Source: Phormidesmis sp.
Lineage (GTDB): Bacteria > Cyanobacteriota > Cyanobacteriia > Leptolyngbyales > Leptolyngbyaceae
Direction of reading: 5' to 3'
NCBI GenBank assembly: GCA_965248535.1
Contig: CBDFJR010000002.1
Span: forward strand, 2,176,001-2,240,000
DNA: 64,000 nt
Numbering within the stretch: position 1 is the first letter of the stretch; each line of letters begins with the position of its first letter. The translations under genes were made by a program, and so were the position numbers. Below are positions 9,700 to 55,626 of this stretch, piece by piece. The notes beneath the pieces are model-generated. The model did not search any database. It was not told the DNA's origin and saw only the letters and a program-made list of their open reading frames with translations.

Positions 9700-9857
9700 T
9701 TAGGATTTGGATGACAGAGACTAGGTTTCAGGAGTTGATGGGACAAACTATCTCAAGGAATAATTTGTTCTTAATCTGGGCATTACCTGTTGCTAACGTG
9801 GCGATCGTGGGGCTTGGGGGAGGTAGTTTGGAACATTTCGTTAGTGGCGTGGATGCT

Positions 9858-9882
9858 GGGCACGGCGGTGCCATGCCCGTAC
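9858..9882 (-). repeat. REP-like palindrome, single copy
   Basis: Identical to 6473-6497; inverted relative to the array on the other side of cpcT. Confidence 0.8.
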
Positions 9883-9949
9883 GAGGGAGGAGTCTTCTGA
9901 GGGGATGTTAGGCTCTTGGGTCGATTTGGTTTTGCTGAATCTATGATCT

Positions 9950-10540: not shown

Positions 10541-10629
10541 GAATTCAAATCGGGTGACTAAATAAAAAGGTTAGATCAAACTAAAGATAAGTCTACCTAA
10601 GAGCCTGACACGACCCAGAAAAAACCCTC

Positions 10630-10888
10630 GTAAGGGCATGGCACCGCCGTGCCCAGTGTCTACGTGGCTAACCGATATCACTGTAAGGGCATGGCACCGC
10701 CGTGCCCAGTGTCTACGCAGCTAACCGATATCACCGTAAGGGCATGGCACCGCCGTGCCCAGTGTCTACGTGGCTAACCGATATCACTGTAAGGGCGTGG
10801 CACCGCCGTGCCCAGTGTCTACGTGGCTCATCACTGTAAGGGCATGGCACCGCCGTGCCCAGTGTCTACGTGGCTAACCGATATCACT
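10630..10888 (+). repeat. Tandem array of five REP-containing units (53, 53, 53, 47, 53 bp)
   Basis: Unit GTAAGGGCATGGCACCGCCGTGCCCAGTGTCTACGTGGCTAACCGATATCACT starts at 10630, 10683, 10736, 10789, 10836. Confidence 0.95.
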
Positions 10889-29949: not shown

Positions 29950-31425
29950 ATGTATATTGTGCAAATTGCATCGGAATGCGCCCCCGTCATCAAGGCTGGA
30001 GGGTTAGGCGATGTCGTCTATGGCCTCAGTCGAGAATTAGAAAATCGCGGCAACACCGTCGAGCTAATTTTGCCGATGTATGACTGCATGAGATTCGATC
30101 ACATTTGGGGGTTGCACGACGCTTACCGCGATTTGTCAGTGCCTTGGAATGGGGGCGCGATCGTCTGTGACGTTCACTGCGGTTGGGTGCATGGGCGATT
30201 GTGTTTCTTTATCAAGCCTAAGTCAGAAGAAGGGTTCTTCGATCGCGGCGTTTACTATGGCAGTTCAGATGACACGATGCGGTTTGCTTTCTTTAGCAAA
30301 GCCGCTTTAGAATTCTTACTCAGAAGCAATAAACGACCGGATGTGATCCACTGCCACGATTGGCAAACGGGATTAATTCCCGTGATGTTGTTCGAGATTT
30401 ATAAATATCATGGCATGGCTGATCAGCGCGTTTGCTATACCATTCACAATTTCAAGCATCAGGGCATTACTGGAAGTGACATTCTTAAAGCCACTGGGCT
30501 AAATCAAGAGGATTATTATTTTCAATACGATCGCTTGCGCGATAACTTCAATCCTTTCGCGCTCAATGTGATGAAAGGCGGCATTGTCTACTCAAATTTT
30601 GTCAATACGGTGTCCCCCCATCACGCTTGGGAAGCGCACTACACCGAAGTTGGCTGTGGGTTGAGTCACACGATTCACCTCAACGAAGAGCGATTTTCGG
30701 GAATTCTCAACGGCATTGACGATCAGTTTTGGAACCCAGAGAGCGATCGCTACATTCCATCTCACTACAGCAAAGATGATTTGACCGCCAAAGCAAAAAA
30801 TAAAAAGGCGTTGAGAGAGCGTCTGTTGCTGCAAGATTCAGATAAGCCGCTCATTTGTTATATCGGGCGGTTAGATGAGCAAAAAGGTGTTCATCTTGTT
30901 CATCACGCGATTTATTATGCCCTCAAAAAAGGGGCACAGTTTGTCTTATTGGGGTCAGCAACCGAGCCGGGAATTAATGCCAAGTTTCAGCACGAAAAAG
31001 CATTTCTCAATGAGAATCCCGACTGTCATTTAGAGTTAGGCTTCAACGAAGAATTATCTCATTTAATCTATGCCGGAGCCGATATGATTGTCGTCCCTAG
31101 CAACTATGAGCCATGCGGATTGACGCAGATGATTGGGCTGCACTATGGCACCGTTCCGATCGTGCGAGGCGTTGGTGGTTTATTGGATACAGTCTTCGAT
31201 CGAGACTATGATTCCAGTCAGCCGCCCCAAAAACGCAACGGCTATGTGTTCTACCAAACCGACGAAAAAGCCCTAGAATCGGCGATGGATAGAGCGATCG
31301 GGCTTTATCAACACGCCCCCGAAGAGTATGAACAACTGGTCATTCAAGGGATGAACTATGACTATTCATGGCACAATCCGGCCGAGGAATATTTGAAGAT
31401 TTACGAGTTTATTCGTCACAAATAA
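29950..31425 (+). CDS. glgA: Glycogen synthase
   Basis: KAGGLGDV, HCHDWQTG, GILNGID, PSNYEPCGL.Q. Confidence 0.95.
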   Translation: MYIVQIASECAPVIKAGGLGDVVYGLSRELENRGNTVELILPMYDCMRFDHIWGLHDAYRDLSVPWNGGAIVCDVHCGWVHGRLCFFIKPKSEEGFFDRGVYYGSSDDTMRFAFFSKAALEFLLRSNKRPDVIHCHDWQTGLIPVMLFEIYKYHGMADQRVCYTIHNFKHQGITGSDILKATGLNQEDYYFQYDRLRDNFNPFALNVMKGGIVYSNFVNTVSPHHAWEAHYTEVGCGLSHTIHLNEERFSGILNGIDDQFWNPESDRYIPSHYSKDDLTAKAKNKKALRERLLLQDSDKPLICYIGRLDEQKGVHLVHHAIYYALKKGAQFVLLGSATEPGINAKFQHEKAFLNENPDCHLELGFNEELSHLIYAGADMIVVPSNYEPCGLTQMIGLHYGTVPIVRGVGGLLDTVFDRDYDSSQPPQKRNGYVFYQTDEKALESAMDRAIGLYQHAPEEYEQLVIQGMNYDYSWHNPAEEYLKIYEFIRHK

Positions 31426-31439
31426 GCTTGTGGTCGGGC

Positions 31440-31538
31440 GATCGACTCATTAATCGGTGTCTAAATCTAGCGATGAACGTAATGAATTCTGTCAATTTTG
31501 TTTTGGAGATCAGCAGCGATGATCCAAGTAAAGAGTGA
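31440..31538 (+). pseudogene. C-terminal remnant of a PIN-type toxin
   Basis: DRLINRCLNLAMNVMNSVNFVLEISSDDPSKE* overlapping the next gene; resembles the D.RL...MNP..F end of PIN proteins. Confidence 0.5.
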
Positions 31539-31734
31539 ACAACAGATCTTACAGGAAGGATTACAAATTCTTCTATCAAATATGGAGCCATCCGAGGTGG
31601 CTCGGTTTTGGGCAGCCTGCAATTTAGGAGGGAGTAACTATCTCAACTTGAAGGATGAACTTTTTGCACAAGAATCAGTAGATAGTCTATATTCCAAAAT
31701 TCTAGATTTTCAGTCGTCGGCACAGGAAGTCTAA
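31519..31734 (+). CDS. Small hypothetical protein, probable antitoxin-type partner
   Basis: 71 aa, MIQVKSEQQILQEGLQILL...VARFW...G..NY. Confidence 0.6.
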   Translation: MIQVKSEQQILQEGLQILLSNMEPSEVARFWAACNLGGSNYLNLKDELFAQESVDSLYSKILDFQSSAQEV

Positions 31735-31873
31735 TAACGCCGTAGAGCATTCGCGCAGAGTCTTCATGCCGCGTTCTAGTGTAGGCTGTTGCCTAATTCA
31801 ACCGAGAAATATTTGAAGATTTACGAGTTTATTCGTCACAAATAAGCGTGTGTGCAATGTTCCACGCAATCAG

Positions 31874-43736: not shown

Positions 43737-44456
43737 CTATCGAATCAGCCCTGTTCTCAAAGCGCGGACGGCAACCTGAGTCCGATCGTCGGCTCCGAGT
43801 TTGTTGAGAATGTTGCGGACGTGAGTTTTGACAGTGCCGACTGTGATGTAGAGCTTGGCCGCAATCTCAGCGTTGCTGCATCCATCGACGATTAACGCCA
43901 AGACTTCTAACTCTCTAACCGTGAGAGGGTAAGCCGGAATAAAATCACCATCTTTTTCAGATAACCCATTAATCGTGATGGTGTTAGGTGCAGCATTCAC
44001 GCCTGCGTTGGCGTAAGCTTTTTGAGACTGTTGCAGCACGATGCGCGCGATCGCCGGATCAATCCAGACGTTGCCTTCAGCAGTGGTTCTGAGCGCTTCA
44101 GTCAATTGGTCGATCGTGGCATTTTTCATGCAATAAGAGTCGGCACCCGCCGCAAAAGCCGCCAAAACCGTGTCTTCATTATCCTGCATGGTCATGATCA
44201 GAATCTTGGTGGCGATCGCTTCTCCGGCCTGCTGAAACCGTTTGAACTGCTGAGTGAGTTCGATCCCGGTCATGTCAGGCAGACCCACATCGACGATCGC
44301 GACATCTGACGGCACTGACCTTAACAGCATCAGCCCTGTTTTGGCATCTCTGGCTTCGCCGACGACCTCAATGTCTTCTCGCTGCTGAAGCGCCGATCTT
44401 AGTCCAATGCGGGTTAGATCATGATCTTCGATAATTACGACACGTAACTGGTGCAT
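43737..44456 (-). CDS. NarL/LuxR-family response regulator
   Basis: REC + LT.RELEVL.LIV.GCSN.EIA HTH. Confidence 0.92.
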   Translation of the reverse strand: MHQLRVVIIEDHDLTRIGLRSALQQREDIEVVGEARDAKTGLMLLRSVPSDVAIVDVGLPDMTGIELTQQFKRFQQAGEAIATKILIMTMQDNEDTVLAAFAAGADSYCMKNATIDQLTEALRTTAEGNVWIDPAIARIVLQQSQKAYANAGVNAAPNTITINGLSEKDGDFIPAYPLTVRELEVLALIVDGCSNAEIAAKLYITVGTVKTHVRNILNKLGADDRTQVAVRALRTGLIR

Positions 44457-44708
44457 TACTCAGCCTCTAGCAAATTTAGACAAAAGTTAAAATATCCTCA
44501 GCAGCAAGTCACTCTTTTGAAGGGTGATCTCTACTTGAGAAAATCTTATGGGCAACACACCCATTGCTCTGTCTACCTTTAGAAGCTTCTTTCCTCTCTC
44601 GCTAGACAGAGATGTTTATCGCTGCGACTCCCACGTCATATTATTCAGCCTTCAAATAGTTTTTTGATTGCTCTATCTAAAAGACTGTGGACTAGCTAGA
44701 ATTGCCAC

Positions 44709-44740
44709 TAGATAAGCTCCCAAAGATGGAAGCTTATCTA
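44709..44740. other. Near-perfect 32 bp palindrome (terminator or operator)
   Basis: TAGATAAGCTCCCA-AAGA-TGGAAGCTTATCTA. Confidence 0.5.
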
Positions 44741-44769
44741 ATGTTGCTCTCTCGCTACAACAGACAATT

Positions 44770-45307
44770 TACCGACCTCTACCCTCGATCGGCACAGCCA
44801 GCCCTTAGCTTTGGGTAGCCTGGCAATTTTCTTAGCACGATTGTCGAATTAGAGACAGCCAGAGCTCTCCAAGTTTATTGCAAGCCAACAGTCTGTAGAG
44901 TTCCATTGTTGGGAGGATTTTGGTCAAGACATCTCGATCTCAATGCCATACAAAACTGTTGTTCGGCTTAAGCGGCGGCTGTAAGAGTTTGCGATCGCAT
45001 AGTTAATGTTGCTGTCTGTGATCACTGCGCCAGTTCAAAATGAAGTTTTGGTCGTTACTGCCCACAACTCGGGGCAACCACTGGGTTAGGCGTTATGCCT
45101 GATTCGGTTTTGACCTGGTAGCGATCGTGCTCCATTCCGTTAGCGGGTTTGTAGTCAACCGTTTGCCCTCCAGAATTTTGACCTCTGACCGTGCCCAACT
45201 GAGTCATTTTGATCGTCATAGCGGTCTCCGCCTCGACCCTCTAGCCCTGCAAGAGAGTATGACAACTGGCAAATTCATTAATTCTAGTTTTCATCGGTGT
45301 CCACTAA
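44770..45307 (-). repeat. Degenerate, insertion-expanded tandem copy of the M23 gene 3' end
   Basis: Collinear blocks shared with about 45370-45563, including an exact 18-mer TGACCGTGCCCAACTGAG and a 12-mer ACCGTTTGCCCT. Confidence 0.8.
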
Positions 45308-45343
45308 GATCGTAGTACGGAGAGGATGCGCGGACAGATTCAC

Positions 45344-46252
45344 TTAGCGTCTAATAGGTTTGGGATCTTCTGCTACCCAACCAAGTTTAGAGTTCGATCG
45401 CACTTCAAAATGCAAGTGGGGGGCACTAGAGCTAGGCGTTCCGGTTTTGCCTACGGTGGCGATCGTGGCTCCGCGTTTCACCGTTTGCCCTGTTTTGACC
45501 TTGACCGTGCCCAACTGAGCATAGCGAGTTTGATAGCCCTGCTGATGGTTGATCACCACTAAATTTCCATAGGCTCCTTGCTGCCCTGCAAAGGCGATCG
45601 TGCCATCTGCGATCGCTAAAACAGGTGCGCCCAGGGCTGCCGCGAGATCCAATCCGGTATGAAACACGGGCTGATCGCGTCCGGTCGGGAGATACCACCC
45701 ATAGCCGAGAACCACGCTGGCGTTAGCCGAGAGCGGATAGCCCGATAACTCGCCAGAATTAGCTTGGGGAGCAGATTGTTCTTCTAAAGGCGACCAATTG
45801 ACCCCCGGCACAAACACCACTCTGGGCGCAGGTTGACAGCCGTTGATCTCAAACAACACATCGGGCCGCACTCTATAGTGAGCCGCCACACTTCGCAAAC
45901 TCTCACCGACTGCAACTTCGGCTCGAATGCCATTGTAGGGAGGGATGAGAATGTCTGCTCCGATCGGAGCGTTCCCTGTTCTCAACACTGGGTTCATGCC
46001 CATCAGCGTTGCAGGAATTAGATTATATTTTCGAGCAATCCCTTCCAAAGTTTCGCCTGCCGCGACTTTGTGACGCACGAGGCGAGATAGAGCCGGAGCC
46101 TGACAGACTGAGTTGGGTGGGGCCGCGTTTGTGGAGGTTGCCATGATTCCGAGCAGCAAGCAGGCTAGCCAGGTAGGGGACGCGATCGCGCCCGTTAAAA
46201 AATTAAATCGACCCATTAACTCTCTATTCACAATAAAATTTTCTGTATTCAC
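45344..46252 (-). CDS. LysM + M23 family metallopeptidase
   Basis: HKVAAGETL..IA LysM, FHTGLDL, YGNLVVI.H, PHLHFEVR. Confidence 0.9.
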   Translation of the reverse strand: MNTENFIVNRELMGRFNFLTGAIASPTWLACLLLGIMATSTNAAPPNSVCQAPALSRLVRHKVAAGETLEGIARKYNLIPATLMGMNPVLRTGNAPIGADILIPPYNGIRAEVAVGESLRSVAAHYRVRPDVLFEINGCQPAPRVVFVPGVNWSPLEEQSAPQANSGELSGYPLSANASVVLGYGWYLPTGRDQPVFHTGLDLAAALGAPVLAIADGTIAFAGQQGAYGNLVVINHQQGYQTRYAQLGTVKVKTGQTVKRGATIATVGKTGTPSSSAPHLHFEVRSNSKLGWVAEDPKPIRR

Positions 46253-46909: not shown

Positions 46910-48423
46910 TTAATGGGTTGGCATGAGGACTTTTTCTGAGGTCATGCCCGCTTTAAGCTGGTCGATTACCGCTAATCGAAGGTCTCGTTTTTCCGAGACG
47001 AGTTTCACGCCCGGTTGTTTCAACGTCAAGAAGTCTAATCCCGTCTCGCGACCCGACATGAGAAAATCATTGACCGCAACTCGATAGGTTTGGGTGTCTA
47101 CGATCGCTCTCCCATTAATGAGCCATGCTTGTTGGTTTTGGGTGACGTTGGCGGTTTGCAAAAATCCCCCCGTTCCTCGATTGGCTTGCCCCTGCGTTAA
47201 GACGCGCTTGATTAAACTCCCTGGCATCTCCACAGACAGCACTTTGCCGCCAAAGGGCAAAATCCGAATCACGTCATATTGAGTGATCGGCCCGGCTGGC
47301 AGCAAATCATCAATGCGAATTGCGCCACCGTTAAAGACGAGCAAGATCGGCGTTGCCTGCTTCTTTTAACATGGCTGTGGCGATCAGATCCGTCAGATTA
47401 GTAGAGCGATCGCGCACGCTTTCTTCTAATCCATCCAGCGTTTCGCGAGTGGTGGCGATGACTTGATCTGGCTCAAAGCCTTTGGCCCGAAAGCCTGCAA
47501 ACCCCCGATCGAGCCATTGTTTAACAATCTCGGCGGTGCGGCGATCGTCAGAGATCGCATCGGTAATGGGCTGAAGTCGAGAGACAATTTTGAGTTTTTG
47601 AGTTGTGGTCTCGTAGGTCAAATCGTGAATATAAACCGTCCGAGCGTTGGCATCTGCTTTAAAGATCGGCGTGAAATCTCGACCGCGCCATTGCTGAATA
47701 TTTTCGTGCTCGTGGCCGCCCAAAATTAAGTCTATTTCTGGAATGGTTTGCGCGAGGCGCTGATCCTGTTCGAGGGGCAGATGAGTCACTGCGATGATCA
47801 TGTCTACCCGACCTTTGAGGGCGCGCACTTGCTCAGAAGCGGCGGCGATCGGGTCGCTAAAGCTCACATAGTTGGGGTGATTGCTGTCTAACGTCAAGCC
47901 GATTAGCCCAACCCGCAAGACTTCACGCTTTCCGGTGGGGTTGGGGTCGCTGGCAACTGAGAAAACCACCGATCGCGGCACCCCTGCCAACGGTTTGCCT
48001 GACGCATCGGAAACATTGCTTGAAAACCAGGTGAACCGCGATTCTTTTAAGCGTTGATAAAATGATTGTTCGCTCAAATCAAATTCATGATTGCCAAACG
48101 TAGCGTAATTAAATCCGACTGCGTTCATCACTGCAATCATTTGTTCCCCGGCGATCGGCTTGCCGTTGACTTGCGCCGTCCCCAACGCAGAAGGGACTAA
48201 AAGAGTCACCTGCCAAAATGGTGTAAGTGCGAGGATTTTCTTTGAGCAATTGCTGACGCAGAGTGGCGACTCGCGCTAATCCACCCCGTGTGCCGCCCTC
48301 GATCGGCGTAATCTCGTAGACATCATTTAGCTGTAGGAGCCTGAGCGTGATCGGCACGGCCAAAACTGGCTGAGTTAGCCCGATCGCCACGAGCGGTAAA
48401 ATCCATGCCTGCCATTTTTTCAT
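46910..48423 (-). pseudogene. Secreted bifunctional metallophosphatase/5'-nucleotidase split by two +1 frameshifts
   Basis: NDVYE, AGD, GNHEFD, GGHEH, NGGAIR, PFG motifs spread over three ORFs; extra base near 48192 and near 47339. Confidence 0.85.
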
Positions 48424-55229: not shown

Positions 55230-55626
55230 GTGAACTACCTACACCAACCGCTAGGCGGTATGCTGTAGGCTTCCCAATTCATCGGGAAGCGCCTCTAGAA
55301 CTCCGTAATTCCGTTGGTCTTACCTTCCCTCCAAGGGCAGCAGTCCTGGTTCCCAAGACCCAATCTTTTAAACAGTCATGACTAGCTGCTTCGACCGCTT
55401 GGTTTTCACGATCCTGATTGCTTGGTTTTTGCAATCTTCGCAGCGTTGATGTTGCTTTGCCGAAAGTATATCAGAACGAACGCTTCGTTTGTAAAAGTTT
55501 GGTGATGTCTTGCCTGCCTTGCTTGCTCTCCAGCTTCGGTGAAGACCGCAAACAAGACGGCAAGACATCACCCTGGCTTTCATCCCACACCAAACGAAAC
55601 GTTATGGCGTGGGGATTCCCGCCGAA
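55230..55626 (-). mobile_element. Non-autonomous IS200/IS605 (TnpB-type) derivative
   Basis: Minus strand: left-end hairpin CCCCACGCCA...TGGTGTGGGA, tnpB-tail-like GTRTAALGGKVRP, right end ...CCTACA...TGTAGGTAGTTCAC; no transposase ORF. Confidence 0.7.

Follow-up and report, generated by a model that had tools for sequence, protein, structure and literature searches.

The locus studied here raises the question why pieces of a gene reappear, in their original order, in the DNA directly downstream of that gene, and whether the letters deposited for this DNA are those that the cells carry. The window, i.e. the whole stretch of 64,000 nucleotides that was analysed (C2:2176001-2240000), belongs to the genome of a filamentous cyanobacterium sampled here as 5.03 Mb, and the assembly is otherwise of good quality with five contigs and 99.76% completeness. 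One side of the locus is formed by an intact minus-strand gene from the ORF list that encodes a LysM and peptidase M23 protein of 302 aa (45344-46252; Pfam Peptidase_M23 with E 2.1e-32, LysM with E 8.8e-8). Its last conserved codons, D-P-K-P-I, lie at 45353-45367 on the same strand and are followed by R-R-stop, and the 3' end of the gene has orthologous counterparts in all seven congeners, at 81-88% identity. The other side is a response-regulator gene, also on the minus strand (43737-44456; Pfam Response_reg and GerE), 887 nt beyond the M23 gene, and the region upstream of it (44457-44614, minus strand) is conserved and matched in the same seven congeners.

This upstream region holds an inverted repeat at 44567-44611, CTCTGTCTA ... 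TAGACAGAG, with a loop of 26 nt. It is mostly retained in the seven congeners and may represent an operator or an RNA hairpin; a terminator-like hairpin on the minus strand (44564-44548) adjoins it. On the other side of the M23 gene two overlapping minus-strand ORFs (46910-47344 and 47331-48209), of 144 aa and 292 aa, look from their sequence like the halves of one gene of the 5'-nucleotidase/metallophosphoesterase type with a putative frameshift near 47335, which would be either a true pseudogene or an assembly indel, and their DNA found no match in five congeners.

Comparison of the flanks showed that a block of about 738 nt (44615-45352) is seen only in this assembly. The two flanks are 27-45 nt apart in seven of seven congeneric genomes vs about 740 nt here, and all three public runs that carry the flanks lack coverage of any bin between 44629 and 45333. 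A contig of run X2 with a depth of 125 joins position 44614 to 45366 via 39 other letters, and a contig of run X1 shows no difference over 44334-44614 (281 nt) and then continues with the same letters as X2. These data are contigs, which lose rare variants, and they possibly represent other strains and not the source sample. Public runs thus do skip the region, as the earlier note had asked of any evidence against its reading, with the reservation that they need not be the source of the assembly. The block was found in none of 89 other genomes of the family, a sample of 400 genomes of the class held no near-identical copy, and an exact-word scan of the genome_contigs collection returned no match. 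The corresponding scans of metagenome_contigs also gave no match, and are uninformative as the lineage's own flank word was likewise found zero times.

We then asked how much of the block is an echo of the M23 gene. According to the earlier note about 200 nt of the 3' end recur as about 540 nt, and the exact words on which this was based are indeed there, with an 18-mer at 45186-45203 equal to 45502-45519 and a 12-mer at 45158-45169 equal to 45480-45491. Several further blocks of 8-10 nt from the 3' end also recur downstream in the same order, 316-346 nt away, and a blastn comparison of the window with itself aligns 45442-45522 with 45105-45207 over 106 columns, 28 of them gap columns, at E 4.5e-8. 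A chance origin, already regarded as very unlikely, can be dismissed with z values of 15.8 (cheap gaps) and 19.5 (standard gaps) for the M23 3' end against 45250-45090, and of 16-18 against the whole intergenic block with dinucleotide shuffles. When the same 3' end was compared with 27,540 strand-windows of the whole genome, the echo ranked at the top with a score of 62, the gene itself set aside, and the runner-up reached 45. The alignment score is also highest for the M23 allele of this genome, with 137 vs 55-105.5 for the alleles of the seven congeners.

So the echo is real, but its size had been overestimated, as significance is confined to 45250-45090. About 138 nt of the gene (45433-45570, minus strand, as delimited by the alignments) correspond to about 160-190 nt of copy. 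Outside this part the shuffle tests returned z of about -0.1 to -0.6 for 45343-45251, 0.7-2.5 for 45089-44966, 0.6-1.5 for 44965-44770 and 1.4-3.1 for 44769-44615. In a separate test the last 66 nt of the gene gave p of about 0.003 against 44995-44615, and this match sits at 44791-44732, elsewhere than the distal blocks had been placed, so that their placement was not borne out. A copy of a copy, i.e. a series of successive echoes, was rejected with z of -0.1 between the distal and the proximal part, and an echo of the left flank stays below significance (z 0.8-2.2).

The identity of the material between the M23 pieces was first hinted at by weak colinear DNA matches to a contig of genome G097 that encodes a DUF4394 (PF14339) protein; Pfam assigns the proteins of this contig, L019, to DUF4394 with E 1.1e-147. 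An intact relative is the single-domain DUF4394 gene of 291 aa in genome G288 (L025:1138-2013; protein P0001). Comparison with it revealed the remnant of a complete DUF4394 gene on the minus strand (44769-45294), running from an ATG at 45294-45292 to the natural stop codon at 44771-44769 and measuring 526 nt vs 876 nt in the intact relative. It begins with MKTRINEF... where G288 has MKTRISRF..., and its motifs follow in family order as DYKPANGM, NPVV, RVVGSNDQNFILN (45071-45033), TGAVITDSNINYA, SRTTVLYGIEIEM, DRDVLT, QNPPNNGTLQTVG (44922-44884), ALAVSNSTI and GLAVPI, with 12 of 13 residues matched in QNPPNNGTLQTVG. The proteins of L019 and G288 match the block in tblastn with best E values of 8e-7 and 1.3e-9, respectively. 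At the DNA level the G288 gene gave z of 6.7-8.0 for 45250-45090, 20-22 for 45089-44966 and 12-19.5 for 44965-44770. Membership in DUF4394 is thus seen as ordered similarity along the domain, in tblastn as well as in DNA comparisons with z up to 22. The 49 nt that separate the M23 stop codon from the remnant ATG (45295-45343, minus strand), tested jointly with 44 nt at the start of the remnant (45343-45251), are weakly G288-like (z 3.0-7.1) and not M23-like. The sequence past the remnant stop (44615-44768, minus strand) is significantly like neither gene (z at most 3.1); a hairpin with 17-nt arms was found there at 44706-44743 in a repeat search, and 44616-44629 has, judged by eye only, TTATCG and CTGC in common with the ancestral spacer.

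The block is a DUF4394 remnant and not a working gene, with a broken frame and a similarity that does not reach the Pfam cut-off. Its frame changes at least five times and holds several in-frame stops. Depending on the gap cost, 17-32 deletions remove 372-407 nt in total from the intact gene, while only 2-8 insertions add 13-28 nt; between 16 of 17 and 27 of 32 deletions have a length that three does not divide, and the largest measure 31-65 nt. In the aligned blocks the DUF4394 sequence is 19-26% different from its nearest relatives, with 30, 18 and 40 mismatches at the first, second and third codon positions. The earlier note had described the copy as having no coding frame, which is correct for an open frame and overlooks the broken gene that is colinear from the ATG at 45294 to the stop at 44771-44769. 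Likewise, the presumed inserts that lengthen distally are not filler, as the material between the M23 blocks consists of DUF4394 remains in colinear order from ATG to stop. The full HIP1 site at 44991-44998, which had been assigned to the copy, does exist, and it lies within a DUF4394-like part (z 20-22) and not in significantly M23-like sequence; it arises where, compared with the intact DUF4394 gene, 7 nt are lost between ...TATGC and GATCGC....

A search of the own genome with the PF14339 profile gave no match at E of 0.001 or below, and the profile was also absent from four congeners, with G097 as positive control giving three matches. Within the genus as sampled here, the gene thus counts as foreign. 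The copies in G288 and G097 (L025:1138-2013 and L019:101-470) are 95% identical over 335 nt, with mismatches of 4, 0 and 14 by codon position, even though the two genomes belong to two cyanobacterial families, and this likeness suggests a recent horizontal transfer of the DUF4394 gene. Apart from the G288 gene, a donor search with the G288 protein yielded relatives of 50% identity or less, and our literature search found no mention of DUF4394.

Both identities meet in the echo proper, the dual-identity core at 45090-45250 on the minus strand, in which M23- and DUF4394-derived pieces alternate and which is significantly similar to both genes at once (z 15.8-19.5 for M23, 6.7-8.0 for G288). Against the M23 3' end, the DUF4394 genes of other genomes reach only background scores of 22-26. 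Followed along the strand, the pieces come as the DUF4394 island GGTCGAGGCGGAGAC, the M23 18-mer and a hybrid of both, GTCAGAGGTCAAAATTCTGGAGGGCAAACGGT, in which M23 and DUF4394 letters are mixed at a grain of 1-7 nt, down to single-base hybrids. Behind it come the DUF4394 24-mer that encodes DYKPANGM, the M23 piece GGAGCACGATCGCTACCAGGTCAAAACCG, DUF4394 again with GAATCAGG, M23 with AACGCCTA, and from there on DUF4394. Each series retains the order of its own gene, and the M23 offsets climb from 292 to 346. The island that encodes DYKPANGM shares 20 of 24 nt with G288, and the protein alignment scores 53 vs a null of 30.4+-5.1, a value reached in none of 500 shuffles. The points at which the sequence switches between the two genes carry short shared sequences, e.g. 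GTCA and GGGCAAA. The M23 pieces show about one mismatch in about 90 aligned pairs of the core by our own count in the printed alignment. As they are nearly free of mismatches and fit best to the allele of this genome, they must be recent, whereas the host sequence has diverged by 19-26%.

An ORF of 54 codons crosses the echo (45055-45219, minus strand). It is putative and very probably not a gene, with a codon-usage score of -0.47 bits per codon in its frame vs +0.19 for the M23 gene and no protein relative at E of 1 or below among longer proteins. The large echo blocks tend to preserve the reading frame (6 of 9 by our count, p about 0.04), which we attribute to the underlying DUF4394 frame. 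A single contiguous tandem or segmental duplicate of the M23 end was rejected, as DUF4394 islands and 28 gap columns out of 106 break the copy, and so was the slow decay of such a duplicate, for which the substitutions are too few and the inserts belong to another gene.

Other classes of elements were also considered for the block. Exact matches of at least 13 nt elsewhere in the genome number 206, with a longest match of 16 nt, which is the chance level, the 18-mer of the gene excepted; a sensitive blastn of the block against the genome gave scores inside the range of 20 shuffled queries. The proposal that the inserts were templated from elsewhere in the genome was supported by neither search, and a repeat element (IS, MITE or dispersed repeat) was rejected for having no further copies in the genome. 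An integrative element with a duplicated attachment site does not fit either, since the M23-like stretch is contained in the insert, close to the end next to the gene, and no repeat is seen at the opposite end. A diversity-generating retroelement was discarded, as the repeat lengths are unequal and the differences are indels rather than base changes. The block holds no ORF of at least 40 aa besides the one of 54 codons, and a search of 44300-45700 against Rfam gave no match at E of 1 or below. In a genome-wide scan for k-mer chains the echo is among very few non-tandem, multi-step stretched chains out of 113 listed, and the other stretched chains that were inspected are situated in repeat arrays. 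No second case of such an echo was found in two k-mer chain scans and a sliding comparison of the window, which turned up tandem arrays and ordinary repeats.

Among the repeats of the window is a tandem array of units of about 53 nt, 91-100% alike, at 10629-10888, with a partial inverted copy about 750 nt off (9835-9927, 75-82% identity). A 72-nt imperfect palindrome, 77% self-complementary in blastn, is located at 55501-55572.

The oligonucleotide usage of the block is similar to that of real intergenic DNA of its own genome also at higher order. The log-odds of an order-5 vs an order-1 model is 0.0295 for the block vs -0.066+-0.022 in dinucleotide shuffles, of which none in 300 scored as high; the whole block has a z of 4.4, and for the distal 373 nt, too, none of 300 shuffles reached its value. 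The lowest order-5 log-odds of the genome were found elsewhere, at C2:2089000-2093500, C1:36600-40600 and C5:873900-878000, which are probably foreign islands. On the basis of this genome-like usage we agree that the block is not random read noise. Raw, unpolished long-read sequence would explain that the differences are mostly indels and that the block is missing from other data, but the usage unlike that of shuffles, the exact 18- and 12-nt blocks, the conserved protein motifs such as QNPPNNGTLQTVG and deletions of up to 31-65 nt all speak against it, and we regard this origin as hardly credible.

The edge of the block on the M23 side looks natural. At the D-P-K-P-I codons (45353-45367) the window differs from X2, as seen by eye, at all five third positions and at no others, and these variants are those of the congeners L004 and L007, which belong to another clade, and not those of L002 and L003. 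Near the junction X2 and the window show 3 differences in 60 nt and further in 1 in 209. Judged from these letters, the 3' end of the M23 gene seems to contain a recombination edge, and the synonymous-only differences argue that the allele is real and recombined, on the right side of the block at any rate.

What has to be explained is a block that is specific to this assembly, that derives from a DUF4394 gene from start to stop and in which M23 and DUF4394 pieces are interleaved in both gene orders. The explanation to which we give somewhat better than an even chance is that a DUF4394 insertion really exists here as a strain-variable feature, and that the sequence deposited for it was corrupted when a consensus or polishing step merged unlike reads. 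A horizontally acquired DUF4394 gene would have been inserted between the M23 and the response-regulator gene in some strains, and an alignment-and-vote consensus (assembly, bridging or polishing) would have been run on reads that disagree in structure. Columns that mix gene-bearing and gapped reads would shorten the gene by many small deletions, and reads of the M23 3' end stacked on the 5' half of the DUF4394 gene over 160 nt would let the path hop between both. We infer the consensus step as producer of the block from two features: the ordered interleaving of two unrelated sequences, a pattern that a path through an alignment graph gives, and the damage, which is nearly all deletion and fits a vote between gene-bearing and gapped reads. 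The recent date of the M23 pieces and the near uniqueness of the echo in the genome also speak for it. It is these two features, combined with the finding that independent data lack the block, that make us judge an artefact most likely, and in this case the deposited sequence of the block probably differs from what the cells carry. Against it stand the genome-like composition, the otherwise good assembly and the natural-looking junction with differences at third positions only. The public runs, being contigs that lose rare variants and may stem from other strains, count against it too, as does, for a source about 95% like G288, the fit of the codon-position mismatches to neutral decay. The explanation is further weakened as we found no mechanism at the level of reads that would place the M23 3' end 316 nt out of register.

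The main rival is a mosaic pseudogene that really formed in vivo; its two forms taken together are possible, though clearly short of an even chance. In one of them, which we consider unlikely, a newly acquired DUF4394 gene would have been rebuilt in one burst by error-prone template-switching repair or replication (SPDIR- or MMBIR-like), an event in which many short stretches would have been lost and short patches of the M23 gene next to it copied in. The composition and the junction with its synonymous differences agree with this, as do the near identity of the M23 patches to the adjacent gene and the short shared sequences at the switches, and the part of the SPDIR report available to us (bioRxiv 10.1101/2023.11.22.568220) describes patches of 3 to about 100 bp from ectopic templates as a bacterial mutation class. 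However, microhomology-guided switching would not be expected to give at least three alternations from M23 to DUF4394 that all advance in order on either template, several events at the SPDIR rate given there would be very unlikely within 160 nt, and the block is missing from the contigs of a strain with identical flanks. That a single shredding event removed at least 17 short stretches and wrote ordered M23 patches from 316 nt upstream into a real block seems improbable to us. Rather improbable, too, is the second form, an old pseudogene that would have decayed in another lineage of the genus and reached this strain through homologous recombination, the crossovers lying in the M23 3' end and upstream of the regulator, and that would have received its M23 patches later by short conversion. 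It would account for the third-position variants at 45353-45367 that match the clade of L004 and L007 and not the X2 form, and for the higher number of differences to X2 near the junction than further in; if the source was about 95% like G288, neutral decay of about 13% is compatible with the mismatches at the three codon positions (30, 18, 40), and the gene seems mobile, with 95%-alike copies in two different families. But a donor is found in none of the 7 congeners, 89 family genomes and 400 class genomes, PF14339 is absent from the four congeners examined with the G097 control (three matches), and the M23 patches are of a much more recent date than the sequence that hosts them. We also know of no mechanism for conversion between unrelated sequences, which counts against this form. 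The original proposal of the earlier note, in which the last 200 nt were duplicated and then stretched to 540 nt by inserts, untemplated or foreign-templated, that grow with distance, does predict ordered exact blocks with rising offsets, but the M23 similarity is limited to about 160 nt, and the "inserts" as well as everything distal to them are DUF4394 in gene order, so that we now hold it to be very improbable.

Compared with known systems, the block is like a decayed, horizontally acquired gene in its ordered motifs from start to stop, its frameshifts, its net loss of about 350 nt and the absence of the family from the rest of the genome, and unlike one in the patches of a neighbouring gene embedded in the remnant. 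Deletions are also many relative to substitutions here when compared with the usual ratio in bacterial pseudogenes. A second echo in the same window offers another comparison. At 31382-31428 and 31802-31848 a 47-nt direct repeat with two mismatches represents the 3' end of a plus-strand gene (29950-31425), and the two copies flank about 420 nt in which a small intact ORF of 71 aa lies at about 31519-31734. A sequence with 82% identity to the core of this insert occurs on a different contig of congener G007, and four congeners match the region of the gene only as far as its end; from the sequence it looks like an ordinary insertion that brought along a spare copy of the gene's end. In both cases the 3' end of a gene reappears downstream of strain-variable DNA, but there it is a clean 47-nt repeat beyond the insert and here a shredded near-side copy inside another gene.

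Assemblers are known to merge closely related strains into one consensus, as reported for strain collapse by Flye in the available part of the Strainberry paper (PMC8302730). The locus is like such a consensus in that a short and a gene-bearing form appear to coexist in the species and in that the deposited sequence resembles a vote between unlike sequences. It is unlike the cases in that part of the paper, which concern near-identical strains, as an interleaved hybrid of two unrelated genes is seen here, and the literature excerpts that we searched held no description of an assembly artefact of this kind. SPDIR events, for which the accessible part of the report (bioRxiv 10.1101/2023.11.22.568220) gives a wild-type frequency of about 1e-12 to 1e-13 per cell, are similar in placing short patches from an unrelated template at microhomologies. 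As described there they are single rare events, in contrast to the several strictly ordered patches within 160 nt found here, and several ordered events at this distance would therefore be new.

In summary, the meaning of the locus depends on which of these explanations is correct. If a consensus artefact is the true origin, a near-complete reference assembly of high quality can carry an invented hybrid at a strain-variable site, and such a hybrid with its genome-like composition passes composition filters and may be taken for exotic biology. What the site really contains would in this case be nothing unusual, namely an accessory DUF4394 gene that some strains carry between two core genes. If instead the block is real and was shredded in a single event, it would be the footprint of a processive, error-prone synthesis on two templates, which is undescribed in bacteria, in a polyploid filamentous cyanobacterium, and should the ordered interleaving of unrelated genes at a grain of 1-25 nt be confirmed in reads, it would need a new mutational mechanism.
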